A DNA stretch of 64,000 bases, taken from Gaiellales bacterium. GTDB lineage: Bacteria; Actinomycetota; Thermoleophilia; Gaiellales; JAICJC01. The stretch covers positions 2,680 through 66,679 of the forward strand of contig JBJMJD010000105.1 in the NCBI GenBank assembly GCA_045806525.1, written 5' to 3'. The notes under the pieces are model-generated. The model did not search any database, was not told the origin of the DNA, and saw only the letters and a program-made list of their open reading frames with translations. Made by a program: the position numbers and the translations under genes. Shown in pieces: positions 26,241 through 58,346 of the stretch (position 1 is its first letter; each line of letters opens with the position of its first letter).

Positions 26241-26246
26241 GGGCGC

Positions 26247-26278: not shown

Positions 26279-26380
26279 CGGTCGACAAACGCATCTCATG
26301 CCGGGCAGAGTCCTGTCGCGGGATGGTGGGCGACCTGGCGGCAGGGCCGGGGCGCGGCTGGAGGGGCTCGGGGCGGCGAC

Positions 26381-26409
26381 TTGACAACCTCGACCTCGAG
26401 GCAGAAGAT
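26381..26409 (+). promoter_or_regulatory. candidate promoter of the + strand iol operon, TTGACA-17-GAAGAT
   Basis: Perfect -35 TTGACA at 26381-26386 and a weak -10 at 26404-26409. Operator site 2 begins about 10 nt downstream. Confidence 0.3.
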
Positions 26410-26418
26410 ACGCGACCA

Positions 26419-26434
26419 GTTGAAACGTTTCAAC
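26419..26434. promoter_or_regulatory. LacI-family operator candidate, site 2: 16-bp perfect palindrome GTTGAAACGTTTCAAC
   Basis: Its 16-bp core is identical to site 1. Its centre is 41 bp upstream of the GTG at 26468 and 158 bp from the site 1 centre. Confidence 0.65.
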
Positions 26435-26467
26435 AGCGACCGTTCGGAGCTCTAACTGCGGATCGGC

Positions 26468-30808: not shown

Positions 30809-30813
30809 GCCCT

Positions 30814-35472: not shown

Positions 35473-36413
35473 GCGACCACCTTCACTCGGCCCAGCGCGC
35501 TCGCGCGCTCGACCAGCTCAGCTCGGCTCGGGGCGTGATCGCGGGGGCGGCGATCGACCACCGTGACTCCCTGCAGGCGGTGCTCGCGAAGCGCGGGCTC
35601 GAGCTCGATCATGCCGGCATCACGCGGCTGAAGGTGCGGGTGGCGTCCGTGCTGGCGCCGGCCGCGACGATGGTGCTGCTCGACGCCGAATATGCCGCGG
35701 CGCAGGCCCTGGCGGCCGGTGCCGTGCCTGGCAGCACCGGCGTGGCCGTACCGCTTGAGGGAATGGGATACGGTGACGTTGCCAAGCTGGACGTGACCAC
35801 CTTCCTCGAGGGCTGGTCGCCGGAGAAGGGCCGGCGGTTGGGCGCGTCCGGGGCGAAACTGCTGCTGCCCTACCGGGTCGACGTGGCCGACCAGGCGGAA
35901 CGCCAGGAACGGGTCGTCGCCGAGGCGGTCGCGGGCTGCCGGGCGGCCGGCCTGGCGTTGATCCTCGAGCCGATCGTCTACAAACGGGAGAACGAGGAGC
36001 GGGCCGGAGGCGACCGTTTCGGGGAGCTGGTGGTCGAGGGAGCGCGGCGGCTGGCCACGCTCGAACCGGATGTGCTTAAGCTGCAGTATCCCGGGTCGGC
36101 CGAGGCCTGCGCGGACGTCGATGACGCCTGCGGATCGCTGATCCCGTGGGTGCTCCTGGGTGGAGGTGCCGACCCCGCCGTGCTCGAGGGCCAGATCGAA
36201 GACGCCTGCCGGGCAGGGGCCAGTGGCTTCATCGTCGGGCGCACGCTGTTCGACGCGGCGCTGGTGGAGGACGAGGCCGAGTCCGAACGGGCGCTTCACG
36301 AGCAGTGCCGGCCGCTGCTGGAGCGGCTGGCCGGGATCGCCGAGCGTCTGGCTCAGCCCTGGCGCGAGCGGCTGGGGGCGCTGCCGACCCCGGGTGACGG
36401 CTGGTACCGGTGA
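35469..36413 (+). CDS. class I aldolase, LacD/DUF2090-like; candidate 5-dehydro-2-deoxyphosphogluconate aldolase (IolJ substitute)
   Basis: 314 aa, ATGA overlap with the upstream gene. DHRDSL, LLDAEY, GAKLLLPYR, VLKLQYPGS (putative Schiff-base Lys) and GFIVGRTLF. It occupies the last position of the iol operon, where an aldolase is the missing step. Confidence 0.6.
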   Translation: MSDHLHSAQRARALDQLSSARGVIAGAAIDHRDSLQAVLAKRGLELDHAGITRLKVRVASVLAPAATMVLLDAEYAAAQALAAGAVPGSTGVAVPLEGMGYGDVAKLDVTTFLEGWSPEKGRRLGASGAKLLLPYRVDVADQAERQERVVAEAVAGCRAAGLALILEPIVYKRENEERAGGDRFGELVVEGARRLATLEPDVLKLQYPGSAEACADVDDACGSLIPWVLLGGGADPAVLEGQIEDACRAGASGFIVGRTLFDAALVEDEAESERALHEQCRPLLERLAGIAERLAQPWRERLGALPTPGDGWYR

Positions 36414-36415
36414 GT

Positions 36416-37576
36416 TCAGCCGGCCCCGTTCGGGGCCACCACCACCTTCATCGCCGCGCCGGTCTGGGCCAGCGCCAGCGCGTCTTCAACCTGCTCGAGA
36501 CCGACCTCGTGCGTGATCGCCCGCGCGAACGGCAGCCGATCTTGGTGGCGCGCGAGCATGGCCAGGCTGGGGCCGTACTGCTCGAGCGTCTCTCCGCCGA
36601 CGCCCAGCACCGACACGCCCTTGGCGCAGATGTGGCGGTTGGGGTTGATCTCGACCGGTCCCATGTCGACGAACGCGCCGGCCTCGATCACGGTGCCGCC
36701 GGCACGCACCAGCTCCAGCGACTCGAGGAACGTCACGGAGACGCCAGAGCAGTCGACCACGACATCGGCGCCGAGGCCACCAGTGTGGTCGCGCAGCGCG
36801 CCCACCCGTTCGTCCACGGTCGTGGCGGCGCTGTTCAGGCACAGGTCGGCGCCGAAGGCGCGCGCGTGCTCGAGCCGCTCGTCCATCAGGTCGACAGCGA
36901 CCAGGCGGCCGGCACCCAGCATCTCGGCCTTGGCAAGGTGCATCAGGCCGAGCGGGCCGAGGCCGACCACTGCGACCGTGTCGCCAAGCCGGAAGCCGCC
37001 GCCCAGCGCCTGCATCGAGCGGGCGGCGTCCAAGCCGTGGGTGACGGCCAGCACCTCGGTCAGCGCCGCCAGCTTGGAGGGCAGCTCGTCGGGCACGCGA
37101 AACAGGCGCGTGCCCGGCAGCAGGTACATGCGCTCGGCCCATCCTCCGAACAGATGCGGAGGCTCGGCGCAGGTGAGCGAGTTGCCGTAGTCGTCGAGAG
37201 CGGTGCAAAGGTAGTACGGGTAGCCCTCGCCCAGGCAGAACCGGCAGCGGCCGCAGGTCACGTTGGGCGCGGGCACCACCCTGTCGCCGACTCCGAGAGG
37301 CAGGCCCAGCGCGTCCACGGGCGGCGGTCCGTCGCCGATCGCCTCGATCACGCCCACGTTCTCGTGGCCGCAGATGATCGGGTACGGAACCGGACGCTCG
37401 TGGTCGGTGCCGGCATACTGCAGGCTCTCACCTCGCCAGGTGTGCTTGTCGGTACCGCAGATGCCGCTGTAGAGCATGCGCAGCAAGGCTGCCCCGGGCG
37501 CGGGGTCGGGCTCCGGGAACCGCTCGACGGTCAGGCTGCCGGGACCGTGCATGACCGCTGCGCGGACGTCGCTCAT
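36416..37576 (-). CDS. zinc-dependent medium-chain alcohol/polyol dehydrogenase (MDR family)
   Basis: 386 aa. CGTDKH, GHENVG and a structural-zinc Cys cluster CGRCRFC...C. Confidence 0.85.
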   Translation of the reverse strand: MSDVRAAVMHGPGSLTVERFPEPDPAPGAALLRMLYSGICGTDKHTWRGESLQYAGTDHERPVPYPIICGHENVGVIEAIGDGPPPVDALGLPLGVGDRVVPAPNVTCGRCRFCLGEGYPYYLCTALDDYGNSLTCAEPPHLFGGWAERMYLLPGTRLFRVPDELPSKLAALTEVLAVTHGLDAARSMQALGGGFRLGDTVAVVGLGPLGLMHLAKAEMLGAGRLVAVDLMDERLEHARAFGADLCLNSAATTVDERVGALRDHTGGLGADVVVDCSGVSVTFLESLELVRAGGTVIEAGAFVDMGPVEINPNRHICAKGVSVLGVGGETLEQYGPSLAMLARHQDRLPFARAITHEVGLEQVEDALALAQTGAAMKVVVAPNGAG

Positions 37577-37593
37577 GAGGGTGCAGCTTACCG

Positions 37594-38496
37594 GTGAGCG
37601 AGCCGGCGATGATCGCGGTGGTGGGCGCCGGGCGGATGGGCAGCGTGCACATGCGGGCGCTGGGCGAGACGCGTCTGGCCCGGCTGGCGGCGGTGGTCGA
37701 GCCGCTGGCGAAGCCGCGCGAGCGGGCGGCGCGGCTGTACGGCGTGCCCCCGTTCGCGGCGCTCGATGAGCTGTTCGCGAGCGGACTGGCGGAGGGAGTG
37801 GTGATCACGGCGCCGACCGATCTGCATCTGCGCCTGGTCGGAGACTGTGTGAGGGCCGGCGTGCCGGTGTTCTGCGAGAAGCCGTGCGGTCTCAGTGCGG
37901 ATCAGGCGGGGCAGGCGGCGGCCGTGGCAAGCGCGGCGGGGCTTCCGCTACAGGTCGGGTACTACCGCCGGTTTCTGCCGGAGCTGGTGGCGCTGCGTCA
38001 GCGGATCGCCGCAGGGCGGCTTGGCGAGCTGTCGCTGGTCGTCCTCAACCAGTGGGACGAGCACCCGCCGTCGGCCGAGTTCGAGCGGCGCAGCGGCGGC
38101 ATCGTGGTCGACATGGGCGTGCATGAGATCGATCAGCTGCGCTGGCTGACCGGGCAGGAGGTCGAGCAGGTGGCGGCGCTGACGCCAGCTCCCGGAGACC
38201 AGTCGAGCGCGGTGATCTCGCTGCGTCTGTCGGGCGGCACGCTTGGAGCCATCACGCTCGGGCGGCGGTTCCCGCATCCGGACTCGTGCTGGATGGAGGT
38301 GGTCGGGACGGCCGGGTACGAGCGGCTGCCGTTCGTCTGGGCCGAGCAGGGCGAGAAGGTGGTGCTGGCGGGGATCGCCACCGAGCTGGATGCGTTCGCG
38401 GCGACGGTGCGCGGGGCGCCCATGGCCGGACCGGGCGGCGCCGATGCGGTGGCGGCGCTGGAGGTCGCGGAGCAGATCGACCGGTGCCTGAGGTGA
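37594..38496 (+). CDS. iolG: Gfo/Idh/MocA oxidoreductase, inositol 2-dehydrogenase-like
   Basis: IAVVGAGRMG, VFCEKPC, QVGYYRRF and DMGVHEIDQLRWL resemble IolG. The alternative ATG at 37609 gives a more typical N-terminus. Confidence 0.7.
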   Translation: MSEPAMIAVVGAGRMGSVHMRALGETRLARLAAVVEPLAKPRERAARLYGVPPFAALDELFASGLAEGVVITAPTDLHLRLVGDCVRAGVPVFCEKPCGLSADQAGQAAAVASAAGLPLQVGYYRRFLPELVALRQRIAAGRLGELSLVVLNQWDEHPPSAEFERRSGGIVVDMGVHEIDQLRWLTGQEVEQVAALTPAPGDQSSAVISLRLSGGTLGAITLGRRFPHPDSCWMEVVGTAGYERLPFVWAEQGEKVVLAGIATELDAFAATVRGAPMAGPGGADAVAALEVAEQIDRCLR

Positions 38497-38870
38497 CCGG
38501 CCGCGGACCGCGGGCCGGTGCCGATGCGCTGGTGCAGAACCAGCGAGGCGAGGTGCTGCTGGTGCGACGGGCCGATGACGGGCGCTGGGCGATGCCGGGC
38601 GGCTGGGTCGATCCGGGCGAGACGCCGGAGCAGGCCGTCGTGCGCGAGGTTGTGGAGGAGACGGGGCTAGAGGTCTCGGCGCCCCGTCTCGTGCACACGG
38701 AGCAGCGCCCGCAGAGCATCCATTACACCTTCCGGTGCCGGCTCGACGGCGGCCGGCTGCGGGCATCCGAGGAGTCGCTTGAGGTTGCGTTTCGTACGCC
38801 GGACCAGGTCGGCCAGTGGCACACGGACCACCACGAGCGTCTGCTGGCCGCGATGGGGGTGGACGAGTGA
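38493..38870 (+). CDS. NUDIX hydrolase
   Basis: GTG at 38493 (GTGA overlap). Nudix box GGWVDPGETPEQAVVREVVEETG. Confidence 0.85.
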   Translation: MTGRGPRAGADALVQNQRGEVLLVRRADDGRWAMPGGWVDPGETPEQAVVREVVEETGLEVSAPRLVHTEQRPQSIHYTFRCRLDGGRLRASEESLEVAFRTPDQVGQWHTDHHERLLAAMGVDE

Positions 38871-38946: not shown

Positions 38947-39423
38947 TCAGTGGCCCGATATCCGGGTCACGTCGACCCGGATCGGAACCGCGTAGTCGGC
39001 GGCGAACGACGCCGGCGTCCAACCGTTCCTGCTGATTCGCTCACCGTACTTCGCGATGTAGGCATCGACCCCGTCCGCCCCCGGATCATCGCTGACCCGT
39101 GCCCGGCCGGATACCACCACCACGTCGCCGCCGGCGCCGTCTCCGTCCAGGTGCACGGACACGCGCGGGTTGGCCGCGATGTTGCGGAGCTTGGGCGCGC
39201 CGGGTCTGCTGTAGATCAGGAGGCTGCCGGCGCCGTCCCACAGAAACCAGACCGGCACCGGCACCGGAGCGCCGGCCGGGTTGACCGTAACCAGCCAGCC
39301 GATCAACTCCTCGCGCAGGCGCCGATTGGCGCGAGCGCCGAACTCCGTGGTCAGGTCGAGCAGCTGCGGTTCAGCCGACGTTCGTGGCCGCCCCGTCCGG
39401 CGCTGCCAGGCCAGCCCGCGCAC
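38947..39423 (-). CDS. pyridoxamine 5'-phosphate oxidase-family (probable F420/FMN-binding split-barrel) protein
   Basis: WLVTVNPAGAPVPVPVWFLWDG...LLIYS...KLRNIAANPRVSVHL is a PPOX-like pattern. The start is uncertain: the GTG at 39423 overlaps the upstream gene by 53 nt. Confidence 0.65.
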   Translation of the reverse strand: MRGLAWQRRTGRPRTSAEPQLLDLTTEFGARANRRLREELIGWLVTVNPAGAPVPVPVWFLWDGAGSLLIYSRPGAPKLRNIAANPRVSVHLDGDGAGGDVVVVSGRARVSDDPGADGVDAYIAKYGERISRNGWTPASFAADYAVPIRVDVTRISGH

Positions 39424-40279
39424 CTTCCTCGAGCAGCCGCTGCAGCGAGACCGCCCCGGCCACGGCGGTGGGCGTCGCGACCGACAGCGTCGCGTAGATC
39501 ACGGCCCACCGCAACCGGTCGGAGGGTGTGACTCCCAGCTGATCGGCCCAGATGTACGCGGCCACCAGCAGGTCGCCGGCGCCGGTGGCGTCCACCACCG
39601 GCACGTGATCGAATGGCGCTGTTCCGGCATCCACGCGCTCGCCCTCGACCGACGCCACCGCGCCCCTGGCTCCCAGCGTCACGACAACCGTCGGGACGAC
39701 AGCGCCGAGCACCCTGATGGCGGCGTCGAGATCGTCGGCACCGGACAGCACCATCGCTTCGCCCTCGCTCAGGAACAGCGCCCGCGCCACCGACAGCTTG
39801 GCCGGCGGCCGTCCGGCGAATGCGCGCGCGTCGTCATCGCCGCAGGTGACGTAGGCGGCCGCCCCCTCGGGTACCACGTACAGCAGGTCGAGGTTGACCG
39901 ATACCGCCCGGGGCGACAGGGCGGCCACGTCGGCCGCGCTCGAGCGCACCCCCGGATCGACGGTCACCATCGCGCGGTCGTCGCCGACCGGCAACACCAC
40001 CGTGGTGGGCGTGCGTGGCGCCTTTCGAGAGACGATCTCGATCCCGTCGCCGCGGAGCACCTCGATCACCAGGTCGCCGGCCACGTCGTCGCCCAGCGGC
40101 GACGCCAGCGCCGTCGCCAGGCCGAGCCTGGCGGCCCCGACCGCGGTGATCGCTCCGCCGCCGGGAGATCGCAGCAGGTCGCTGCCGAATCGCTCCTCGC
40201 CCAGCGCCGGCAGTGCCTCCAGCCCCGTGAACGTGAGGTCGAGGAAGGCCGGAGTGGCAACCGCTAGATCGTATCCCAT
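39371..40279 (-). CDS. PfkB-family carbohydrate kinase (paralog A of a pair)
   Basis: ATG at 40279. PAFLDLTFTGLEALPALGEER, SPGGGAITAV, PTVVVTLGARG and DATGAGDL. By eye, roughly 40% identical to 42474-43364. Confidence 0.8.
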   Translation of the reverse strand: MGYDLAVATPAFLDLTFTGLEALPALGEERFGSDLLRSPGGGAITAVGAARLGLATALASPLGDDVAGDLVIEVLRGDGIEIVSRKAPRTPTTVVLPVGDDRAMVTVDPGVRSSAADVAALSPRAVSVNLDLLYVVPEGAAAYVTCGDDDARAFAGRPPAKLSVARALFLSEGEAMVLSGADDLDAAIRVLGAVVPTVVVTLGARGAVASVEGERVDAGTAPFDHVPVVDATGAGDLLVAAYIWADQLGVTPSDRLRWAVIYATLSVATPTAVAGAVSLQRLLEEGARAGLAAPDGAATNVG

Positions 40280-40319
40280 CGGCGGCGAGGATAGCGCACC
40301 GGTCGGCGCCCGGGTTTGC

Positions 40320-41114
40320 CTACGGGCGACCCTCGCGGGCGGCTGCGCGCAGGCCCTCGACCTCCGGCGCAAGCTGGGTCGTTCGGTACCGCCAGCGATC
40401 GCCGCGGTTGGCCAGCAGGGCGTGCTCGAGCGGGTCGCCGTGCTGGTCGAGGACGGTCTCCTGGACGACGAGCAGCGGCGCGCCGGTGGGCACGTCCAGC
40501 AGCCGGGCGGTGCGGGCGTCGGCCGTGACCGCTCGCAGCGTGCAGTCGCGGTCACCCGGGACCAGGCCGCACCCCTGTGCCAGCGCCCCGTACAACGACG
40601 CGGTCTCGAACTGGACATCCTGCAGAGCGTGGGCCAGCCGTCCGGGCATGCATGACCGGTCGAGCGAGAGCGCCACCCCGTCCACCAGCCGCACCCGCTC
40701 CAGCTCGAAAACGTCGTCGCCAGGCGGCAGCCGCAGGGCCTCAGCCTCGGCCGCCGACGCGGCCCGCAGCCGCTGGTTCAGCACCTGCGACGCCAGCGTC
40801 ACCCCCGACTCGTGGGCCCACTCGGTCAGGCTGCGAGGGCCGTGCGCAAGCTCAACCACCTGCGCCGCCGCAACGTACCAGCCGTGGCGCCCGGCCGCTG
40901 TCAGCAGGCCTTTCGCCTCCAGGTCGAGCAGCGCTCGTCGCAGCGTGTTTCGGGAGACGCCGAGCCGCGCGCACAGCTCGCGCTCCGGCGCCAGCCGCTG
41001 TCCTGCCGGCAGCCGTCCGCCGGCCATGTCGGCGCGCAGCGAGCGTGCGACGCGCCGGAACAGCGGCTCGCTGCCGCGGGCGTCGTTGGGCGGGCCGGTG
41101 AGAGCGCTTGACAC
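40320..41114 (-). CDS. GntR-family transcriptional regulator (HutC/UTRA subfamily)
   Basis: GTG at 41114. wHTH LPAGQRLAPERELCARLGVSRNTLRRALLDLEAKGLL plus a UTRA-like C-terminal half. Confidence 0.85.
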   Translation of the reverse strand: MSSALTGPPNDARGSEPLFRRVARSLRADMAGGRLPAGQRLAPERELCARLGVSRNTLRRALLDLEAKGLLTAAGRHGWYVAAAQVVELAHGPRSLTEWAHESGVTLASQVLNQRLRAASAAEAEALRLPPGDDVFELERVRLVDGVALSLDRSCMPGRLAHALQDVQFETASLYGALAQGCGLVPGDRDCTLRAVTADARTARLLDVPTGAPLLVVQETVLDQHGDPLEHALLANRGDRWRYRTTQLAPEVEGLRAAAREGRP

Positions 41115-41137
41115 TGGTGGTACCTCTTTGGTACTAC
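41108..41137 (+). promoter_or_regulatory. candidate promoter/operator in the 31-bp gntR-GH4 spacer: TTGACA-18-TACTAC plus two TGGTAC repeats 11 bp apart
   Basis: TTGACA at 41108-41113. TGGTAC at 41118-41123 and 41129-41134. There is an imperfect dyad ACTGGTGGTACC/GGTACTACTGG. The GH4 GTG at 41146 lies 9 nt after the putative -10. Confidence 0.25.
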
Positions 41138-41145
41138 TGGCGGTC

Positions 41146-42477
41146 GTGAAGCTAACCCTAGTCGGAGCCGGCGGATTTCGCACGCCGGCGATCTATCGCG
41201 CGTTGGTCGCCGGAGCCGGCACGACCCGCTTCGATGAGGTCGTGCTGTTCGACCCCAACGCGGAGCGGCTGGAGCAGATCGGCGCCGTGCTGGCCGGGAT
41301 CGACGCCGAGCTGGGCGACCGAGTCGCCTACCGCAGCTCCGGCGATCTGCGCGACGCCCTGGAGGGCGCCGACGTCGTCTACTGCGCCATCCGCGTTGGG
41401 GGACTCGAGGGCCGACTGCTGGACGAGCGGATCGCCGTGGACGCCGGCGCGATCGGCCAGGAGACGACCGGCGCCGGCGGCATCGCGTTCGCCCTGCGTA
41501 CGGTGCCCGCCGCCACCGCCATCGCAGAGCAGGTCGCCCAGCACGCCCCGGATGCCCTGTTCATCAACTTCACCAACCCCGCCGGCCTGGTCACCGAGGC
41601 GCTGCAGCGGGTGCTCGGAGATCGCGTGGTCGGCATCTGCGACGCTCCTCCCGACATGTGCCAGCGGGTGGCAACCGCGCTCGGCATGCCGCTCGACCAG
41701 CTGTGGTTCGACTACTTCGGCATCAACCACCTGGGCTGGCTGCGCGCGGTGCGACACCGCGAGCGCGACCTGCTGCCCGGGCTGCTGGCCGACGACGATC
41801 GGCTGGCCGGGTTCGAGGAGGGCCGCCTGTTCGGCGGCGAGTGGCTGCGAGCCGTCGGGATGCTGCCAAACGAGTACCTCTACTACTACTACTTTGAGCA
41901 CGAGGCGCTCGCATCGATGCAGGGCGGCAACCTCCGCGCCTCGGTGCTGCTCTCCCAGCAGAGCATCTTCTATGAAGGCAACGGTGACGCCCTGGCGCGC
42001 TGGAAAGCCGCGAACTCGGCCCGCGAGGCGTCCTACATGGCCGAGGCCTGGTCGTCGCGGGGCGTCGAGATGGCGGAGGTGAGCGCCGCCCGGGAGCCCG
42101 GTGGCTACGGCGGCGTTGCCCTGCAGATCGTGGACGCCATGGTCAACGCGCGGCCGCAGGTGATGATCCTGAACACGGCCAACCGCTCCAGCATGCCATT
42201 CCTGGACGAACAGGCGGTGGTGGAAGTGCCGTGCTTGGTGGGGCCCGGCGGTGTCATCCCGGTCGCCGTCGGGGACGTCCCGATGGAGGCCAAGGGCCTG
42301 ATCCTGCAGGTGCGCGCGTCCGAGCGGGCCGCGATCGACGCCGCCCTCAGCGGCTCGCGGCGCGAGGCCCTGCGGTCGCTGGCGCTGCATCCATTGGTTC
42401 CCTCGGTCGAGGTGGCCGAGCGGATCCTGGACGGCTACCTGGCCGAGCACCCGGCGCTGGCGGGGCGGTTCGCGTGA
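41146..42477 (+). CDS. glycoside hydrolase family 4 (NAD+/Mn2+-dependent), 6-phospho-beta-glucosidase (CelF/LicH)-like
   Basis: VKLTLVGAGGFRTP Rossmann, GICDAP (metal Cys), GINHLGW, and PNEYLYYYYFE, which I recall from CelF/LicH-type enzymes. The subfamily call is unverified. Confidence 0.8.
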   Translation: MKLTLVGAGGFRTPAIYRALVAGAGTTRFDEVVLFDPNAERLEQIGAVLAGIDAELGDRVAYRSSGDLRDALEGADVVYCAIRVGGLEGRLLDERIAVDAGAIGQETTGAGGIAFALRTVPAATAIAEQVAQHAPDALFINFTNPAGLVTEALQRVLGDRVVGICDAPPDMCQRVATALGMPLDQLWFDYFGINHLGWLRAVRHRERDLLPGLLADDDRLAGFEEGRLFGGEWLRAVGMLPNEYLYYYYFEHEALASMQGGNLRASVLLSQQSIFYEGNGDALARWKAANSAREASYMAEAWSSRGVEMAEVSAAREPGGYGGVALQIVDAMVNARPQVMILNTANRSSMPFLDEQAVVEVPCLVGPGGVIPVAVGDVPMEAKGLILQVRASERAAIDAALSGSRREALRSLALHPLVPSVEVAERILDGYLAEHPALAGRFA

Positions 42478-43364
42478 GTGTCGATGTGGTGTGCGCGGGA
42501 GCGCCGTTCCTGGACATCACGTTCAGCGGCATGGGTGCGATGCCGGCCCTGGGCGAGGAGCGCATGGCCGAGCGGGTTCAGTTCACGCCGGGCGGGCTTG
42601 CCAACGTGGCGCTGGGTCTGACCAGGTTGGATCTGGAAGCGGTCGTGATGTCGCCGGTGGGAGACGATCTGTGCGGCCGAATTCTCTCCGGCCTCCTGGC
42701 CGAGCAGGGGATCGGCTGGGTCGGCCCGCGTGCCGATGCGACAGCCGTCTCGGCCATTCTGCCGCTGGACGGCGACCGCGCCTTCGTCACGGTCGCACCT
42801 GACCTGCCGCGCGACGGCGAGGCGATCGCCGCGCTGGAGCCGCGAGCGGTCGTGATCGACCTGCCGGAGGTGGCCGTGGCGCCGGCCGGCTGCGCCGTCT
42901 ACGCGGTGGTGGGCGACTTCGACGCGCGCGCCCTGGCCGGACGGCTGCCGGCGGCGCTGGCCTCGGCCAGGACGCTCGTGGCGAACCACTCCGAGGCGTC
43001 GTTCCTGACCGGCCTCGGTGACCCCGAGCAGGCCGCCGAGGCGCTGACCCGGCACTGCCCAACGGTGGTTGTCACCCTGGCGGATGAGGGCGCCGTTTGC
43101 GCCGGTCAGCACGGGCTGCTGCGCGCGTCCGCGCCATCGGTGACGGCCGTGGATACGAATGGGGCCGGCGACCTTTTCACCGCGGCCTGGGTGTGGGCCG
43201 ATCTGGCCGGGCTGCCGGTCGGGGAGCGCCTGCGGCTGGCCGTCACCTACGCCGCGATGTCGGTACGCGTCCCCACCACGCTGGCCGGCGCCCTCACGAT
43301 CGACGAGTTCCGCGACATCGCGGGGCCCTTTGATGCAAGCATTCCACCGAACGGAGCGAGATGA
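42474..43364 (+). CDS. PfkB-family carbohydrate kinase (paralog B)
   Basis: GTG at 42474 (GTGA overlap). PFLDITFSGMGAMPALGEER, TPGGLANVA, PTVVVTLADEG and DTNGAGDL. Confidence 0.8.
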   Translation: MSVDVVCAGAPFLDITFSGMGAMPALGEERMAERVQFTPGGLANVALGLTRLDLEAVVMSPVGDDLCGRILSGLLAEQGIGWVGPRADATAVSAILPLDGDRAFVTVAPDLPRDGEAIAALEPRAVVIDLPEVAVAPAGCAVYAVVGDFDARALAGRLPAALASARTLVANHSEASFLTGLGDPEQAAEALTRHCPTVVVTLADEGAVCAGQHGLLRASAPSVTAVDTNGAGDLFTAAWVWADLAGLPVGERLRLAVTYAAMSVRVPTTLAGALTIDEFRDIAGPFDASIPPNGAR

Positions 43365-44722
43365 TGACCCACATGCGTCCACGCCTGTCTGTGTCGCTTG
43401 CCTGCCTGACGGCGGTGCTGGCTCTGTCCGCGTGCGGCACCCCGGGATCCAGCGGCGATTCCGTGTCGCAGCCCAGCGGTGCCGTGTCCACCGGCTTCGA
43501 CACGTCCAAGAAGGTGACGCTGACGATGTGGGACACGGAGAACGCGGCCGGCCCCTCGAAGGCCGAGGACGAGCTGATCCAGCAGTTCGAGCAGAAGTAC
43601 CCGAACGTGACCGTCAAGCGCGTCGTCAAGAACTTCGACGACTACATGGCCACGATCAAGCTGGCGGCCTCGTCCAGCGACGCCCCTGACGTCTTCCAGG
43701 GCAACGAGGGCGCGGTCGACCGGGCGCTGGTGAAGGCGCACCTGATCACCCCGCTGGACGGCTACGCCAAGGCCTACGGCTGGGACACCCGGTTCGGCAG
43801 CTCGGCCGCGCTGAACCCGCTGCGGTGGTCGTCCGACGGCAGCCAGTGGGGCGTGGGCCAGCTGTGGGGCATCGCCCAGAAGGCGGAGGTGGTGGGAGCC
43901 TTCTACAACAAGGCCACCCTGAGGCGGCTGGGTCTGCAGGTGCCGACCACGTTCGACCAGTTCCAGCAGAGCCTGGCCGTGGCCAAGTCCAGGGGCGTGC
44001 CGCCGATCATGGTCGGTAACCTCGACCGCTGGCCGATGGGGCACGTGTTCATGGTGCTGCAGGCGCGGTTCGACCAGGCCGCGTCGATCTCGAACTGGAC
44101 GTACGGCCACGCCGGCGCCACCTTCGACACCGCGGGCACCCGCAAGGCGGCCACGGTGCTGCAGCAGTGGAGCGACAAGGGCTACTTCGAGGACGGCTTC
44201 AACGGCGTCAGCCAGGAGAACGCAGCCGCCCGCTTCGGCAAGGGCGAGGGGCTCTACTTCATCACCGGCCCATGGGAGAACCAGACGTTCGCCGGGCCGC
44301 TCGGCGACGGCGTCGGCTTCTTCCCGCTGCCGTCCCTGGACGGGACGCCGGGAGCGCCCACCACCGGTGCGCTGTCGCTGCCGTTCCACATCAGCTCGCA
44401 CTCCCAAAACCAGGCCGTGGCGGCGGCATTCATCAACTTCATCACCGACCAGAACGCGGCCAAGATCGTGATCGGCAACGGCGACCTGCCGGCCGCGAAC
44501 CCGGGGGCGGCGGCGGTCGACCCGAAGTCGTCGCTGGCCGCGATATCGGCCGCCTGGAGCGAGAAGGCCAAGGCCGGCACGCTCACGCCCTACCTGGACT
44601 GGGCCACCCCCACGATGGGCGACACCCTGTTCGGCGGGCTGCAGCAGCTGAGCGAGAACCGCGAGACGCCGGCCGACTTCGCGGCGGCCGTCCAGCAGGA
44701 CTGGGTGAAGACACATTCGTGA
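43361..44722 (+). CDS. ABC sugar-binding lipoprotein (family 1)
   Basis: 453 aa. Lipobox LALSACGTPGSSG. ATGA overlap with the kinase gene. Confidence 0.9.
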   Translation: MMTHMRPRLSVSLACLTAVLALSACGTPGSSGDSVSQPSGAVSTGFDTSKKVTLTMWDTENAAGPSKAEDELIQQFEQKYPNVTVKRVVKNFDDYMATIKLAASSSDAPDVFQGNEGAVDRALVKAHLITPLDGYAKAYGWDTRFGSSAALNPLRWSSDGSQWGVGQLWGIAQKAEVVGAFYNKATLRRLGLQVPTTFDQFQQSLAVAKSRGVPPIMVGNLDRWPMGHVFMVLQARFDQAASISNWTYGHAGATFDTAGTRKAATVLQQWSDKGYFEDGFNGVSQENAAARFGKGEGLYFITGPWENQTFAGPLGDGVGFFPLPSLDGTPGAPTTGALSLPFHISSHSQNQAVAAAFINFITDQNAAKIVIGNGDLPAANPGAAAVDPKSSLAAISAAWSEKAKAGTLTPYLDWATPTMGDTLFGGLQQLSENRETPADFAAAVQQDWVKTHS

Positions 44723-44822
44723 GGCCGGCCTGCCGGGTGTCGAGGGGAACGGTCGGCGCTGGCGGCGCCGGCCGCGCCCCCAGCCCGCCCCCGGCGAGCC
44801 GCGGCTGATCGGCTACCTGTAC

Positions 44823-45653
44823 GTGCTGCCGGCGCTGGTGGTGTTCGGCGTGTTCGTCGTCGCGCCCATGATCGACGGCGCCTGGATCTCGCTGTTTGCC
44901 TGGGACGGCGTCACGGTCGGGCACTGGGTGGGCCTGTCCAACTACCGCGAGGCGCTGGTCGACCCGCTGGTGCGGGAGGCGTTTCGCCACTCGCTGGTGC
45001 TGGTGGGGTTCTACGCGGTGCTGCCGATCACGATCGGGCTGTTCCTGACGGCGCTGATGTCGCATGCCCGGGTGCGGGGCAGCGCCGCCGTTCGCACCAT
45101 CATCTTCCTGCCCCAGGTGCTGGCGGCGGTGGTGATCGGCGTTGCCTGGAAGTGGCTGTACGACCCGTCGGGGCCGATCAACTCGCTGCTCGGCGCGGTG
45201 GGGCTGAGCAGGCTCGAGCACTCGTGGCTGGGCGACTTCTCGACGGCGCTCCCGGCCGTCGGCGTGATCGGCACCTGGGTCACCACCGGCCTGTGCCTGG
45301 TGCTGTTCGTGGCCGGCGTGCAGCGGATCCCGCTGTCGCGCTACGAGGCGGCGCGGGTCGACGGCGCCGGCCCGGTGCGCGAGTTCTTCGCGGTCACGCT
45401 GCCGGGCCTGCGCAACGAGCTGGCGGTGGCGATGTCGCTGAGCGTGATCACCGCGCTGCGCGCCTTCGACATCATCTTCGTCACCACCAAGGGCGGCCCC
45501 GGCACCGCCACGACGGTGCCCTCGCTGCTGATCTACCAGCGGGCGTTCATCACCGGCGAGGTGGGATCCGCGGCCGCGATCGGGGCGATCATGGGTGCCA
45601 TCATCCTGCTGCTGTCGGTCGTGATCACCCGGGTGGTGGAGGAGCGGCGGTGA
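44823..45653 (+). CDS. carbohydrate ABC transporter permease (MalF-like); 5' end unresolved
   Basis: EAA loop YEAARVDGAGPVREFFAVTLPGL. The first canonical start (GTG 44823) falls inside TM1. The in-frame upstream region 44709-44822 encodes a typical basic N-terminus but has no ATG/GTG/TTG. Confidence 0.8.
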   Translation: MLPALVVFGVFVVAPMIDGAWISLFAWDGVTVGHWVGLSNYREALVDPLVREAFRHSLVLVGFYAVLPITIGLFLTALMSHARVRGSAAVRTIIFLPQVLAAVVIGVAWKWLYDPSGPINSLLGAVGLSRLEHSWLGDFSTALPAVGVIGTWVTTGLCLVLFVAGVQRIPLSRYEAARVDGAGPVREFFAVTLPGLRNELAVAMSLSVITALRAFDIIFVTTKGGPGTATTVPSLLIYQRAFITGEVGSAAAIGAIMGAIILLLSVVITRVVEERR

Positions 45654-46474
45654 ACACCGGCAGCTTCGAGCGCACCGCGACCCACGCGATGCTGGCCCTG
45701 TTCGCGGTGCTGGCGCTAGCACCGCTGGTGGTCGTGGTGCTGGCGGCGATGCATCCCTCGGGAGCGCTCCTGTCCGGCGCCGGGCTGCCCGACTCGCTCA
45801 GCCTGTCCACCTTCCGCACGGCGTGGGACGAGGGCGGCTTCAGCCGCCTGATGACGTCGAGCGCGATCGTGGCGGTGACGGTGGTGGCCCTGACGACGGT
45901 GCTCTCGATCCCGGCCGGGTATGCGTTCGGGACGATGCGCTTCCCGTTCGCGGATCTGCTGTTCTACGTGATCCTGACCGGCATCGTGGTGCCGTTCGAG
46001 TCGCTGATCGTGCCGCTCTACTACAGCTTCCGGAACGTCGGCCTGACCGACTCCTACTGGGGCCTGATCCTGCCCCAGACCGGCCTTTCGATCTCGTTCG
46101 GCGTGTTCTGGATGCGCGCGTTCTTCCGCTCGCTCCCGCCGGAGCTGTCGGACGCGGCGCGCGTGGACGGCGCCACCTCGTGGCGGATCCTGTGGCGGGT
46201 GCTGGTGCCGATCGGGCGTCCCGCCATCGTCACCATGGTGTTGCTGGTGTTCATGTGGACGTGGAACGAGTTCCTGCTGGCGCTGGTGATGATCTCCGAC
46301 CAGACGCACCGCACCGCGCCGCTGGGCCTGTCTGCATTCCAGAGCCGCTACGGCGTGGACGTGCCCGGCGTGTCGGCGGCCGCCGTGTTCGTGGCGGCAC
46401 CTGTCGTGATCCTGTACGTGCTGACGCAGCGCCAGTTCCTGCGCGGCATGCTGGCCGGATCGATCAAGGGCTGA
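45650..46474 (+). CDS. carbohydrate ABC transporter permease (MalG-like)
   Basis: GTG at 45650 (GTGA overlap). LSDAARVDGATSWRILWRVLVPIGRP. Confidence 0.9.
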   Translation: MNTGSFERTATHAMLALFAVLALAPLVVVVLAAMHPSGALLSGAGLPDSLSLSTFRTAWDEGGFSRLMTSSAIVAVTVVALTTVLSIPAGYAFGTMRFPFADLLFYVILTGIVVPFESLIVPLYYSFRNVGLTDSYWGLILPQTGLSISFGVFWMRAFFRSLPPELSDAARVDGATSWRILWRVLVPIGRPAIVTMVLLVFMWTWNEFLLALVMISDQTHRTAPLGLSAFQSRYGVDVPGVSAAAVFVAAPVVILYVLTQRQFLRGMLAGSIKG

Positions 46475-46475
46475 C

Positions 46476-47564
46476 GTGCCGGGCATCGCCTTCGACCAGG
46501 TCGTGAAGCGGTTCGGTGAGGTGACCGCCGTGCGCGAGCTGACCCTCGACGTGGCCGACGGCGAGTTCGTGGTGCTGGTCGGCCCGTCCGGGTGCGGCAA
46601 GACGACGGCGCTGAGGACGCTGGCCGGGTTGGAGGCGGTCAGCTCGGGCCGGATCCTGATCGGTGATCGCGAGGTGCAGCAGCTGCCGCCTCGCCAGCGC
46701 GACGTGGCGATGGTGTTCCAGGACTATGCGCTGTACCCGCAGATGAGCGTCTACCGCAACCTCGCGTTCGGGCTGCAGACCCGCAAGGTGCCGCGCGAGC
46801 AGGTGCGGCGACTGGTGACCGAGGCGGCGGAGAGGCTGGGCCTGAGCGAACTGCTCGACCGCAAGCCGCGGCAGCTGTCCGGCGGCCAGCGCCAGCGGGT
46901 GGCGCTGGGCCGGGCGCTGGTGCGAAAGCCGCAGGCGTTCCTGATGGACGAGCCGCTGTCCAACCTCGACGCCAAGCTGCGGGTGGACATGCGGGCCGAG
47001 ATCAAGGCGCTGCAGCGCGAGACCGAGGTGACGACGGTGTTCGTCACCCACGACCAGGTCGAGGCGATGACGATGGGAGACCGGATCGCCGTGATGCGTG
47101 ACGGCGTGCTCGAGCAGGTGGGGAGGCCTGAGGTGGTCTACAACCTGCCGGCCAACGTGTTCGTCGCCGGGTTCATCGGCAGCCCGGCGATGACGTTCGG
47201 GCGCGTCGGCGTGGAGCGCGCGGGCGGGGCGCTGCGGTTGAACCACCCGGCGCTTTGCCTGGAGTGCGCGCCGGTCGCCGAGGCGGGGGACGAGGCGGTC
47301 GTCGGCATCCGTCCCGAGCACATGCGCCCGTGGCAGGACGGTGCCGGTCTGGCCGGGCCGTTCCAGGGCACGATCGAGTCGGTCGAGGCGCTGGGCCGCG
47401 AGACGTTCCTGGGCGTGCGTGTGGCCGACGACCTGCGGCTGGTGGTGCGCGCCGACGGGGCTCCCGACCACCGGCTGGGTGACCGGTTCCAGTTCGGCGT
47501 CGAGCGCGGCCGGCTTCACCTGTTCGACACGGGCTCCCAGAGGGCGATCGCGCACGGCGTTTGA
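46476..47564 (+). CDS. ABC sugar transporter ATP-binding protein (MalK/MsiK-like)
   Basis: GPSGCGKTT, LSGGQRQRVALGRA and FLMDEPLSNLDA. Confidence 0.9.
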   Translation: MPGIAFDQVVKRFGEVTAVRELTLDVADGEFVVLVGPSGCGKTTALRTLAGLEAVSSGRILIGDREVQQLPPRQRDVAMVFQDYALYPQMSVYRNLAFGLQTRKVPREQVRRLVTEAAERLGLSELLDRKPRQLSGGQRQRVALGRALVRKPQAFLMDEPLSNLDAKLRVDMRAEIKALQRETEVTTVFVTHDQVEAMTMGDRIAVMRDGVLEQVGRPEVVYNLPANVFVAGFIGSPAMTFGRVGVERAGGALRLNHPALCLECAPVAEAGDEAVVGIRPEHMRPWQDGAGLAGPFQGTIESVEALGRETFLGVRVADDLRLVVRADGAPDHRLGDRFQFGVERGRLHLFDTGSQRAIAHGV

Positions 47565-47622: not shown

Positions 47623-48162
47623 GTGAAACGAGCTCTGCTCACGATCGTGGCCGCGTCACTGCTGTCACCTCTCACTGCGCGCGCCGCCGCTACCGGCCCC
47701 GCCTTCCACCGTCACCATCCGGCTGCGGGCCGGCCGCGGACGCTGGGCGCGCGTGCGGCCAGGTTCTCGCTGCGCTTCCGCGGCACGCCGTACGTGTGGG
47801 CGGGCACGACGCCGCGCGGCTTCGACTGCTCGGGCTTCACGCGGTTCGTCTACGCCCACATGGGCATCGAGCTGCCGCACTCGAGCTACGCCCAGTGGGC
47901 GATGGGACGTCACGTCGGCCGCCACGCGCTGCGCCCCGGCGACCTGGTCTTCTTCGACGGGCTCGGCCACGTCGGCCTGTGGATCGGCCGCGGCCGGTTC
48001 ATCCACGCTCCCCAGACCGGCGACGTGGTGTCGGTGGCCAGCCTCAGCCACGGCTGGTACGCCGCGGCCTACAGCGGTGCCGTACGGCTGCGCGGCACCC
48101 AGCGCAGCCACCGGGCGCGGCGACACCAGCAGCACGCCGTGCACCTGGTCGCGCACGCCTGA
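47623..48162 (+). CDS. NlpC/P60 (C40) cell-wall peptidase, secreted
   Basis: Signal peptide VKRALLTIVAASLLSPLTARA. Catalytic Cys context PRGFDCSGFTRFVY, and HVGLWIG...FIHAP. Confidence 0.85.
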   Translation: MKRALLTIVAASLLSPLTARAAATGPAFHRHHPAAGRPRTLGARAARFSLRFRGTPYVWAGTTPRGFDCSGFTRFVYAHMGIELPHSSYAQWAMGRHVGRHALRPGDLVFFDGLGHVGLWIGRGRFIHAPQTGDVVSVASLSHGWYAAAYSGAVRLRGTQRSHRARRHQQHAVHLVAHA

Positions 48163-48486: not shown

Positions 48487-51462
48487 ATGCTGCGCCACCC
48501 CGGCTACACCCGCGAGCGCATCGCCCAGGTCGGGGACCGGATCCGCGCGGTGATCCACGCCGACGCCGTCGCCCCCGAGCGGCTGGCGGTGGCCGGGCCG
48601 GTCGACCGCATCGAGCCGGCCGAGGCCGAGCTGCTCGAGTACCGCGACTGCCGGCTCGGTGAGACGTTTGGGCCGCTCTGGGCGACCTTCTGGTTCAAGG
48701 TCGAGGCGACCGTGCCGGAGCCGTGGCAGGGGGAGCGCGTCGATCTGCTCTGGGTCAGCCACAGCGAGGCCACCTTGTGGGATGGCGGCCGGGCGCTCCA
48801 GGGCCTGAACACCAGCCCCGACGGCGCCCGCGTGGACGCCATGGTGCGCGAGACCGCGGCCGCGGGGGAGCGGCTCGACCTGCGCGTCGAGCTCGCATGT
48901 AACGGCCTCTTCGGTGAGCTGTCGCGGCCGTACGCCAGCCGCGAGCCGGTGGTGCTCGACCGCTGCCAGATCGCCCGTTTCGACGCGCGAGCCTGGCGGC
49001 TGCATCACGACTTCGACGTCCTGCGCCGGCTCGAGGCGGACCACGCTGAGGGGCTCGACCCGACCTGGGGAGGCGAGCTGCTGCACGAGCTGAACCGCGT
49101 CTGCAACGTCTGGTCGGAGCATGATCCGGCCACGTGGGACGAGGCCGAGGGGATCCTTGCGCCCCTGCTGGAGCGCCGTAACGCCACCGTCACGCACGAG
49201 CTGTCGGCGATCGGCCACGCGCACCTCGACACCGCCTGGCTATGGCCGCTGGCGGAGAGCTACCGCAAGGCGGTGCGCAGCTTCAGCTCGCAGGTCGCGT
49301 ACATGGACCGCTATCCCGAGTTCCGGTTTGCGTGCTCGCAGGCCCAGCACTACGACTGGATCCGGCGCCGTGACCCAGAGCTGTACGGACGCATCTGCGC
49401 TCGCGTCGACTCCGGCCAGTGGCTGCCGGTTGGCGGCACCTGGGTGGAGCCAGACTGCAACCTGCCGTCGGGCGAGTCGCTCGTGCGCCAGTTCCTGCAC
49501 GGCCAGCGCTACTTCGAGCGCGAGTTCGGCCGCCGCTGTGCCGAGTTCTGGAACCCGGATGTGTTCGGCTACAACGGCCAGCTGCCCCAGATCATGCGCG
49601 GCGCCGGGATCGGCCGGTTCCTCACCCAGAAACTGTCCTGGAACCGGTTCAACCCGCCCGCACACCACACGTTCACCTGGCAGGGCATCGACGGGTCGCA
49701 GGTGCTCGCGCACTTCCCGCCGGCCGACACCTACAACGCCACGGCCGAGGTGGCCGAGCTGCGCCGCAGCGCTCGCGACTACAAGGACCACGACCGGTCG
49801 CACCGCAGCCTGCTGGTGTTCGGCCACGGCGACGGCGGCGGTGGGCCGACGCCCGACATGCTGGAGACGCTGCGCCGGGCTCGCGACCTGCAGGGCCTTC
49901 CCCGCACCACCATCACCACCAGCGATGCGTTCTTCACCGCCCTGGAGGCCGACGCCCGCGACCTGCCGGCGATCGTGGGCGAGCTCTACTTCGAGTACCA
50001 CCGGGGCACCTACACATCGCAGGCCGCTGTCAAATTAGGCAACGCACGCGGCGAGCGGGCGCTGCACGATGCCGAGTTCCTGGCCGCGGCCGCCATGCGC
50101 GAGGCCGGTGCGGACTACCCCTCCGAGCGGCTGGACGAGCTCTGGAAGCTGCTGCTGTTGAACCAGTTCCACGACATCCTGCCTGGGTCCAGCATCGGCC
50201 TGGTCTATGAGGATGCCGCCCGCGACCACGCCGTCGTGCTGGCGGGCGCTGAGGCGCTGGCGGTTGGCGCGCTGGCGGCGATCGCCGGCGGCGGCCCGTC
50301 GGCGCCGGTGAACACGATGGGAGCGGCCCGCGCCGAGGTGGCGGAGCGGCCGGACGGTGAGCTGGCCTGGGTGGAGGCGCCCAGCTACGGCATCGGCAGC
50401 GCGGCGGAGGCCGGGCCAACCGTCGCACGTGCGACCGAGCGGGGCGACCTCGTGGTGCTCGAGAACGGCCTGCTGCGGGCTGAGCTCGCCCGCGACGGAC
50501 GCCTCGCCTCGCTGGTGCACCTGGCATCTGATCGCGAGGCGCTGGAGCAGCCGGGGAACGTCCTCCAGCTCTACGACGACCGGCCCACGGCCCACGAAGC
50601 CTGGGACGTCGACCCCTTCCACCTCGAGACGGTTCGGGACGCCGGACCGGCCGAGTCCTGCGCCGTCACCCAGCCTGGCGGTCTGCGGGCGCAGGTGGAG
50701 CTGCGATACCGGATCGGGTCGGCCAGCACGTTGCGCCAGCTGGTGCGCCTGGACGCCGGTGCCTCCCGGCTCGAGTTCCACTGCGAGGTCGACTGGCGGG
50801 AGCGCCGGACGATGCTGAAGGTGCTGTTCCCGGTCGCCGTGCACGGCCCCTCCGCCACCTACCAGATGCAGTTCGGCCATGCCGAGCGGCCCACCCACTT
50901 CTCCACCAGCCACGACCTGGCTCGCTACGAGGTGCCCGGGCACCGCTTCGCCGATCTATCCGAGCACGGCTTCGGCGTGGCGCTCCTGACCGACTGCAAG
51001 TACGGCTACTCGACGCTGGGCGGCGAGATGCGGATCAGCCTGCTGCGCTCGACCTCCGTGCCCGACCCCGACGCCGACGCGGGCAACCACGCGTTCGCCT
51101 ATGCGGTGCTGCCGCATCCGGGCGGCTGGCGGGAGGCGGGAGTGGTGGCCGAGGCGGCCCGGTTCGCGACCCCGCTGCGGTGGGCTTCGGTCGCCGGTGA
51201 GCCGCGGTCCTGGCTGTCGGTCGACGACCCCAACCTGGTGCTCGACACGGTCAAGCGGGCCGAGGACTCCGACGCCCTGCTGCTCCGGCTGTACGAGGCC
51301 CACGGCGCGCGGGGCAGGGCGCGCCTGCGCGTCGGCTGGCCGGTCACCGAAGCCGTGTCGTGCAACCTGCTCGAGGATGCCGGTGAGGCGCTGCCGCTGG
51401 ACGGCGGCGTGATCGAGCTCGGCTACCGCCCCCACCAGATCATCAGCCTGCTCGTCAGCTGA
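48487..51462 (+). CDS. glycoside hydrolase family 38 alpha-mannosidase
   Basis: 991 aa. IGHAHLDTAWLWP metal-binding motif, with size and domain order typical of cytosolic bacterial GH38 enzymes. Confidence 0.9.
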   Translation: MLRHPGYTRERIAQVGDRIRAVIHADAVAPERLAVAGPVDRIEPAEAELLEYRDCRLGETFGPLWATFWFKVEATVPEPWQGERVDLLWVSHSEATLWDGGRALQGLNTSPDGARVDAMVRETAAAGERLDLRVELACNGLFGELSRPYASREPVVLDRCQIARFDARAWRLHHDFDVLRRLEADHAEGLDPTWGGELLHELNRVCNVWSEHDPATWDEAEGILAPLLERRNATVTHELSAIGHAHLDTAWLWPLAESYRKAVRSFSSQVAYMDRYPEFRFACSQAQHYDWIRRRDPELYGRICARVDSGQWLPVGGTWVEPDCNLPSGESLVRQFLHGQRYFEREFGRRCAEFWNPDVFGYNGQLPQIMRGAGIGRFLTQKLSWNRFNPPAHHTFTWQGIDGSQVLAHFPPADTYNATAEVAELRRSARDYKDHDRSHRSLLVFGHGDGGGGPTPDMLETLRRARDLQGLPRTTITTSDAFFTALEADARDLPAIVGELYFEYHRGTYTSQAAVKLGNARGERALHDAEFLAAAAMREAGADYPSERLDELWKLLLLNQFHDILPGSSIGLVYEDAARDHAVVLAGAEALAVGALAAIAGGGPSAPVNTMGAARAEVAERPDGELAWVEAPSYGIGSAAEAGPTVARATERGDLVVLENGLLRAELARDGRLASLVHLASDREALEQPGNVLQLYDDRPTAHEAWDVDPFHLETVRDAGPAESCAVTQPGGLRAQVELRYRIGSASTLRQLVRLDAGASRLEFHCEVDWRERRTMLKVLFPVAVHGPSATYQMQFGHAERPTHFSTSHDLARYEVPGHRFADLSEHGFGVALLTDCKYGYSTLGGEMRISLLRSTSVPDPDADAGNHAFAYAVLPHPGGWREAGVVAEAARFATPLRWASVAGEPRSWLSVDDPNLVLDTVKRAEDSDALLLRLYEAHGARGRARLRVGWPVTEAVSCNLLEDAGEALPLDGGVIELGYRPHQIISLLVS

Positions 51463-55618: not shown

Positions 55619-55683
55619 AACGTCTCCCTCGTTGCAGGTTGGGCGCTCATCGGAGCGAGCGGAGCGCCATACTACGAGACCGT

Positions 55684-58324: not shown

Positions 58325-58346
58325 CCCCAGCGAAAGGACCCGGCAG

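Follow-up and report, generated by a model that had tools for sequence, protein, structure and literature searches.

A GH4 glycosidase and PfkB kinase operon in a Gaiellales bacterium without a phosphotransferase system, and its predicted ATP-dependent route to phosphoglycoside cleavage

How might a bacterium that lacks a sugar phosphotransferase system (PTS) make use of a glycosidase that is expected to act on 6-phosphorylated substrates? The question is raised by an operon in a 64,000-nucleotide stretch, hereafter the window, of contig JBJMJD010000105.1 from a Gaiellales bacterium (assembly GCA_045806525.1). A gene for a glycoside hydrolase of family 4 (the window GH4) is followed there by genes for a PfkB-family kinase (kinase B) and an ATP-binding cassette (ABC) importer, divergently from genes for a GntR-type repressor and a second PfkB kinase (kinase A). 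We conclude that the best-supported reading, which we regard as probable though well short of certain, is that the ABC system would import an intact glycoside, a PfkB kinase would phosphorylate it, and a phospho-specific GH4 would then cleave it. This reading is favored by the phospho-type residue signature of the GH4, the pairing of GH4 and PfkB genes across phyla, the missing PTS here together with the failure to find HPr in most other carrier genomes checked, and the phosphate pocket of the repressor.

The window GH4 exceeds the gathering scores of both Pfam GH4 domains. In a search against PDB, solved 6-phospho-alpha- and 6-phospho-beta-glucosidases score 150 to 203 bits (a Geobacillus 6-phospho-beta-glucosidase, 203; GlvA, 159; BglT, 152; AglB, 150), whereas non-phospho GH4 structures score 36 to 72 bits (LplD, 72; AglA, 48; Agu4B, 36). 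The glucose-6-phosphate (-1) subsite of Salmonella ChbF comprises C172, N150, H203, Y258, T113, E112, R96, R282, and N173, and the BglT subsite is stated to be identical (PMC13197890, a 2026 micropublication that models ChbF). Eight of these nine residues are kept in the window GH4 (C165, N144, H195, Y244, T107, E106, R90, and R264), both arginines among them. The ninth, N173, corresponds to D166, and Asp is also found at this position in PTS-linked 6-phospho-alpha enzymes. C165, H195, and Y244, which align with C172, H203, and Y258 of ChbF, are invariant across the GH4 clade, as are the NAD+-binding Rossmann glycines G7, G9, and G10.

The phospho-type signature of the window GH4 consists of R83, R90, E94, Q105, E106, C165, H195, Y244, and R264. 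The labeled comparators were E. coli ChbF, E. coli MelA, two plasmid-encoded 6-phospho-alpha-glucosidases, a Klebsiella ChbF-like enzyme, and a Rhizobium alpha-galactosidase-type enzyme; the genes for both plasmid enzymes adjoin PTS EIICB genes. In the alignment, R90, E94, Q105, E106, and R264 are present in all four PTS-linked or ChbF-type comparators, whereas MelA, the Rhizobium enzyme, and two further GH4s of the Gaiellales genome have a different residue or a gap at all five positions. Judged from this alignment, the five positions appear to split phospho from non-phospho GH4s cleanly, with the window GH4 in the phospho state at every one. By its residue signature, then, the enzyme is of the phospho type, and a requirement for a 6-phosphate is predicted.

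Phylogenetic placement agrees with the signature. In a maximum-likelihood tree, the kinase-linked GH4s, including that of the window, form one clade with a support of 97 in the Shimodaira-Hasegawa-like approximate likelihood ratio test (SH-aLRT). The clade lies outside the non-phospho group and apart from both the PTS-linked alpha clade and the ChbF clade, and the MelA-type enzymes are placed across a long branch. The motif that starts at the metal-binding Cys reads CDAP in the window GH4, CDMP in the PTS-linked alpha enzymes, CN(I/V)P in the ChbF group, and CH(S/G)V in MelA, the Rhizobium enzyme, and a MelA-like GH4 of the same genome. CDAP is nearer to the PTS-linked 6-phospho-alpha type (CDMP) than to CelF/ChbF (CNIP), and its Asp weakly suggests an alpha-linked substrate. 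The preliminary description of this DNA had associated the GH4 motifs with CelF/LicH-type enzymes. We rejected a CelF/ChbF/LicH type, as CDAP differs from the CNIP or CNVP of ChbF and its Klebsiella homolog and the enzyme falls into a different clade, its own kinase-linked one. A GlvA/AglB type was rejected as well: the Cys-Asp pair is shared, but the motif is CDAP, the clade is separate, and there is no PTS at the locus or in the genome.

The genome is 3.02 Mb in length and 99.3% complete, and in the whole of it PTS_EIIC, PTS-HPr, and the Enzyme I N-domain have no match, whereas control genomes respond. The earlier remark that the locus has no PTS thus extends to the genome. HPr was also not found in three of five other carrier genomes tested. 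When 61 genomes from the order were sampled, HPr was found in 9 and not in 52; the sample includes an unpublished genome (G038) that is among the 9 and on which no claim rests. GH4 orthologs occur in five of the 61 genomes, and four of those five are without HPr. The module thus has a patchy distribution, and its transfer between soil members of Actinomycetota and Chloroflexota is probable.

Close homologs of the GH4 clade number in the thousands in metagenomes, and three distant homologs (61 to 76% identity) have the core of GH4, PfkB, substrate-binding protein (SBP), and two permeases in unrelated surroundings. To follow the gene neighborhood, GTDB species genomes were scanned, and in the 79 loci obtained, open reading frames were called and searched with the window proteins. 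Where the GH4 is at least 58% identical and the locus is long enough, a PfkB of the kinase B type adjoins it in nearly every case. Two layouts recur. The first is the arrangement of the window; in the second, common in Limnocylindrales, the kinase and ABC genes are on one strand and genes for the GntR regulator, the GH4, and a PHP-domain protein of about 475 amino acids are on the other. The PHP (phosphoesterase) domain is weakly matched, and its gene directly follows that of the GH4 in many Limnocylindrales loci (for example, L087:11381-12814 and L088:11406-12830); the protein might dephosphorylate a product or a phospho-inositol moiety. More distant GH4s of the CDxP type (33 to 50% identity) with a PfkB neighbor are found in Nocardiopsis, Streptosporangiaceae, Lachnospiraceae and other Bacillota, a metagenome-assembled genome (MAG) of Terriglobia, and pSymB of Sinorhizobium meliloti. 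The GH4-kinase pairing, often with overlapping codons, therefore spans Actinomycetota, Chloroflexota, Bacillota, Acidobacteriota, and S. meliloti pSymB. Within the 79-locus set, the CNVA-type GH4s of Microbacteriaceae have no kinase neighbor. On pSymB, the GntR gene is divergent from a GH4-PfkB-SBP-ATPase-permease-permease run (L089:8014-15588; strain 1021 at 1,388,649-1,390,960), and this operon is kept at 99% or more in dozens of strains. A table of pSymB deletion phenotypes (PMC4961836) is given without coordinates, and from it no phenotype was mapped to 1.389 Mb. A full-text literature search found no paper that describes the GH4-PfkB-ABC route or the S. meliloti operon.

The two kinases had been described as paralogs, and they are 44% identical over 279 residues (E value, 4e-63). 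Both pass the Pfam PfkB cutoff, and both have the GG dipeptide and a catalytic motif of the DTxGAGD type (DATGAGD in kinase A and DTNGAGD in kinase B); the NxxE of the family is found in kinase B, and kinase A has SxxE instead. The motifs that they were said to share are present, except that kinase A reads AFLDLTFTG and not PFLD. No NCBIfam equivalog cutoff is reached by either kinase: the best model is ribokinase, at 65 bits versus 300; FrlD similarity amounts to 39 bits versus a cutoff of 247; and fructokinase, 1-phosphofructokinase, 2-keto-3-deoxygluconate (KDG) kinase, IolC, and tagatose kinase also stay below their cutoffs. An AlphaFold model of kinase B (predicted local distance difference test score [pLDDT], 92) has the ribokinase fold, and Foldseek relates it alike to ribokinase, the sulfofructose kinase YihV, pseudouridine kinase, and KDG kinase (template-modeling score of about 0.8 and about 23% identity). 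A sulfoquinovose pathway was considered and rejected, as YihV, a top structural match, is only 23% identical and the isomerase and aldolase of the sulfoglycolytic Embden-Meyerhof-Parnas (sulfo-EMP) pathway are absent. Neither kinase was accepted as IolC, as a separate full-length PfkB lies beside IolB in a myo-inositol (iol) cluster upstream.

Kinase A orthologs occur, among the 79 loci, only in close Gaiellales loci (L008 to L011, L013, L045, and L056). Because of this distribution, the conserved unit is, on the evidence of gene content, one with a single kinase, kinase B, and kinase A is a lineage-specific paralog. The two-kinase module of the preliminary description thus stands for kinase B, the conserved partner, but not for kinase A, which is confined to close relatives.

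The nearest solved structures of the repressor are NagR/YvoA and DasR. NagR binds the phosphate of glucosamine 6-phosphate (GlcN-6-P) or N-acetylglucosamine 6-phosphate (GlcNAc-6-P) via T90, R133, R135, and S165-I166-Y167, and alignment to 2wv0 places T, R, R, and S-L-Y of the repressor at these positions. Because these phosphate ligands are kept, the effector is likely to be phosphorylated. A simple scan of the 31-bp region between the divergent start codons gave no match to a sigma-70-like site. The region has two TGGTAC repeats 11 bp apart and almost no room for a leader, a layout suggesting that the transcripts have a very short leader or none and that the operator is an overlapping one.

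The importer belongs to the CUT1 type, with an SBP_bac_1 lipoprotein, two BPD_transp_1 permeases, and a MalK-like ATPase with a TOBE domain. The nearest solved relatives of the SBP bind xylo-, arabino-, manno-, and chito-oligosaccharides, at low scores that fix no substrate; such oligosaccharide-binding relatives would fit uptake of an intact glycoside.

Based on this inventory, we envisage that the CUT1 system would import an intact di- or oligosaccharide-like glycoside and that kinase B, translationally coupled to the GH4, would phosphorylate a primary hydroxyl of the glycone with ATP, most likely at O6. The GH4 would then oxidize C3 with NAD+; elimination of the aglycone, for which Mn2+ and the conserved Tyr would be used, and rehydration would follow, leaving a hexose 6-phosphate besides the free aglycone. 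The HutC-type repressor would leave the 31-bp region in response to the phosphorylated intermediate or to a phosphosugar specific to the pathway, and kinase A may have as its substrate the aglycone or a second glycoside of a related kind. In this repressor-controlled glycoside module, the cytoplasmic kinase most likely stands in for the PTS of other bacteria. It is the order of the steps, the phosphorylated position, and the substrate that we infer; the gene identities, the residue signature, the conserved pairing, and the PTS absence from which we proceed are observed.

Several points weigh against this reading. Monosaccharides and other small molecules are the substrates of most characterized PfkB kinases, and the modeled fold of kinase B, being equally near to ribokinase, sulfofructose kinase, and pseudouridine kinase, gives no indication of how large the acceptor is. 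The two arginines are named as phosphate ligands from the subsite list of a modeling paper and a small labeled alignment rather than from ligand contacts, and the pair could in principle hold another anionic group. The labels of the plasmid comparators are annotations, and only E. coli ChbF and MelA among the comparators are experimentally characterized. In addition, HPr is present in some carriers (G004 and Nocardiopsis), and a literature search found no assayed enzyme of the kinase-linked GH4 clade.

In a more mundane route, the GH4 would, like AglA and MelA, cleave an unphosphorylated glycoside, and the monosaccharides released would be the substrates of the PfkB kinases. This would agree with the typical activity of such kinases and with the ribokinase-like fold of kinase B; two kinases could match two monosaccharide products, and free-glycoside GH4s exist, two GH4 genes of the same genome being without the phospho signature. 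The comparative evidence has nevertheless weakened this explanation, which we consider unlikely, as the window GH4 has the full phospho-type signature and falls outside the non-phospho group, the conserved core contains one kinase only, and both kinases are far below all monosaccharide-kinase equivalog cutoffs. The predicted phosphate pocket of the repressor likewise suits a pathway-specific phospho-intermediate better than it suits a central metabolite.

The substrate might instead be anionic on import (a uronic acid, sulfated, or phosphorylated glycoside), with the arginines binding the charged group and the kinase acting downstream. The GH4 family does include alpha-glucuronidases and alpha-galacturonidases, LplD and Agu4B among the PDB matches, and the putative phosphoesterase directly after the GH4 in many Limnocylindrales operons could be read in this way. 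However, similarity to LplD and Agu4B is far below that to the phospho enzymes, the operon encodes no uronate isomerase, dehydrogenase, or KDG aldolase, and the relatives of the CUT1 SBP bind neutral oligosaccharides, so we judge such a substrate to be quite improbable. Least credible to us, and very improbable, is that the ABC importer has another substrate than the GH4-kinase pair and that the two share only their regulation within a sugar utilization island. The setting is indeed a carbohydrate island, with the iol cluster upstream, a GH38 gene downstream, and a second GH4 gene at 58 kb, but overlapping stop and start codons tie the GH4, kinase B, and the SBP together, and the same gene set recurs in unrelated surroundings and several phyla.

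The other GH4 genes of the genome bear on the reading in which a kinase takes the place of the PTS. There are five GH4 genes in all, three with the phospho signature and two without. Besides the window GH4, phospho-signature enzymes of the CNIP and CDQH types are encoded at the two ends of a cluster on contig C9 (L097:5757-19144); between them are genes for a ROK-family protein, an SBP, a Gfo/Idh/MocA oxidoreductase, and a BadF/BcrAD-type kinase-family protein. All three phospho-type GH4s are thus found in loci with ATP-dependent sugar-kinase families in a PTS-less genome, which is what a model with a kinase in place of the PTS predicts. Of the two genes without the signature, one encodes the MelA-like GH4 (CHSV) and lies just outside the window start (upstream on contig C105; L096:971-4103), divergent from genes for a DeoC/LacD-type aldolase (1-516) and a canonical PfkB kinase (534-1424; 160 bits). 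The other, a divergent GH4 at 58320-59678 (+), has an unusual CSCT motif at the metal Cys and is near genes for a copper amine oxidase (55501-57603) and a minus-strand ABC system (52573-55801).

A lead on the substrate comes from the complete-looking myo-inositol cluster directly upstream of the GH4 module (24493-38496; Table 1). A 76%-identical Gaiellales relative, one Terriglobia locus, and two loci from Chloroflexota likewise have iol genes no more than 10 kb away from the GH4; in three contexts, alpha-mannosidase genes (GH38 or GH125) lie in the vicinity; and a true IolD is encoded in 7 of 10 other carrier genomes versus 3 of 14 control genomes. One could imagine that the substrates of the module are glycosyl-inositols, in other words head groups released from lipids or thiols in which a sugar is joined to inositol. 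Compounds of this kind would be glucosaminyl-inositol (GlcN-inositol; mycothiol or glycosylphosphatidylinositol [GPI] anchors) and mannosyl-inositol (phosphatidylinositol mannosides or fungal and plant inositol-phosphoceramides). The sugar would be phosphorylated, and the GH4 would split the conjugate into a hexose 6-phosphate and myo-inositol, the latter entering the adjacent iol pathway. We regard this substrate as doubtful, as most loci are without an iol neighbor and at least one carrier, Nocardiopsis, is without IolD.

The whole window has a G+C content of about 71%, and the closest public relatives of the locus are Gaiellales MAGs. All eight genes of the module were confirmed at their previously described coordinates by translation, Pfam, and NCBIfam, as was the divergence of the repressor and kinase A genes from the run that leads from the GH4 to the ATPase (Table 1). 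The plus-strand genes had been said to join mostly by 4-nucleotide overlaps, and these are seen at three of the five junctions (GH4/kinase B, kinase B/SBP, and permease 1/permease 2), the other two (SBP/permease 1 and permease 2/ATPase) being short gaps. The kinase A gene begins 40 nucleotides downstream of the repressor gene on the same strand, and the two are probably cotranscribed. On the 3' side of the operon are genes for an NlpC/P60 peptidase (47623-48162) and a GH38 alpha-mannosidase of 991 amino acids (48487-51462), and the position of the latter is kept in close relatives (L008 to L010). Genes for a NUDIX hydrolase (38286-38870) and a PNPOx-like flavoprotein (38947-39423) are between the iol cluster and kinase A; a link of either to the iol or GH4 pathway is not evident.

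Table 1. Coordinates of the GH4-kinase module and of the myo-inositol cluster upstream of it (window positions)
Feature	Position	Strand	Remarks
IolB	24493-25461		
IolC	25317-26429		Full-length PfkB beside IolB
IolE	26456-27409		
SBP of the LacI/ABC block of the iol cluster	29336-30808		
IolD	32219-34372		
DUF2090/DeoC aldolase	35469-36413		
395-amino-acid protein	36410-37597		No Pfam match
IolG-like protein	37594-38496		Gfo/Idh/MocA dehydrogenase
PfkB kinase A	39371-40279	-	302 amino acids; Pfam PfkB, 70 bits; paralog of kinase B
GntR+UTRA (HutC-type) repressor	40320-41114	-	Pfam GntR, 64.5 bits; UTRA, 119 bits
Divergent control region between the gntR and GH4 start codons	41115-41145		31 bp; TGGTAC repeats; putative operator
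GH4	41146-42477	+	First gene of the operon; Pfam Glyco_hydro_4, 122.6 bits; Glyco_hydro_4C, 145.8 bits
PfkB kinase B	42474-43364	+	296 amino acids; Pfam PfkB, 95 bits
SBP lipoprotein of the CUT1-type importer	43361-44722	+	Pfam SBP_bac_1 and SBP_bac_8; lipobox LSAC in the translation
ABC permease 1 (UgpA/MalF-like)	44739-45653	+	Pfam BPD_transp_1; NCBIfam UgpA and GlcT similarity
ABC permease 2 (UgpE/MalG-like)	45650-46474	+	Pfam BPD_transp_1; NCBIfam GlcU, UgpE, and MalG similarity
MalK/UgpC-type ATPase with TOBE domain	46476-47564	+	Pfam ABC_tran, OB_MalK, and TOBE_2; NCBIfam UgpC subfamily, 439 bits (cutoff, 432)

Annotations of GH4 proteins as 6-phospho-glucosidases are very common in soil metagenomes, and many of the organisms concerned are PTS-less. 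If our reading is true, a dedicated PfkB glycoside kinase acting with a GH4 would account for such annotations in organisms of this kind, the kinase-linked enzymes would constitute a third branch of phospho-type GH4s, and glycoside 6-kinases would join the repertoire of the PfkB family. If the substrate should prove to be a glycosyl-inositol, the pathway would be, to our knowledge, the first bacterial catabolic route for such head groups. The presence of the operon on pSymB of S. meliloti, a genetically tractable model, makes the idea directly testable.

The proposed route combines elements known from several systems. The fructoselysine system FrlABCD/FrlR imports a sugar conjugate, phosphorylates it at O6 with a PfkB kinase, cleaves it with a 6-phosphate-specific enzyme, and is controlled by a HutC-type GntR repressor. 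The logic is the same and the parts are partly the same, but cleavage there is the work of a SIS-domain deglycase, whose substrate is an Amadori compound, and not of a GH4, and the similarity of our kinases to FrlD is weak. BglT of Thermotoga maritima is reportedly a GH4 6-phospho-beta-glucosidase from an organism without a PTS; it resembles the window GH4 as a phospho-specific enzyme in a PTS-less bacterium, implying a kinase as the phosphate source. BglT is of the beta (Asn) type, like ChbF, and we know of no dedicated PfkB partner or operon described for it. A suitable kinase activity does exist in BglK of Klebsiella pneumoniae, which is said to belong to the ROK family, whereas kinase B is a PfkB-family protein, and for which we know of no operon that would also encode a GH4 and an ABC importer. 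BglK is ATP dependent and has been used to make 6-phospho-beta-glucosides for GH4 enzymes (PMC10628242).

The E. coli chb system (the ChbBCA PTS, the ChbG deacetylase, and the GH4 enzyme ChbF/CelF) has in common with the window the -1 subsite with both arginines, the Cys and His metal ligands, and the Tyr base. There, the glycoside is cut only after 6-phosphorylation and the phosphate comes from the PTS, whereas the window has an ABC importer and a PfkB kinase; ChbF also differs in its motif (CNIP versus CDAP), is 29% identical to the window GH4, and belongs to a different clade. Enzymes of the Bacillus subtilis GlvA and Klebsiella AglB type share the phospho signature and the Asp after the metal-binding Cys (CDMP versus CDAP here), but they are encoded beside PTS EIICB genes, form a separate long-branched clade, and are about 25 to 28% identical to the window GH4. 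The preliminary description had put forward a PTS-independent phosphoglycoside route. Comparative evidence supports the route, but it is not new in principle, given the precedents of BglT in PTS-less Thermotoga, the ROK kinase BglK, and the fructoselysine logic. What is new is the monophyletic GH4 branch, its dedicated PfkB partner, and the operon that joins both to an ABC importer.

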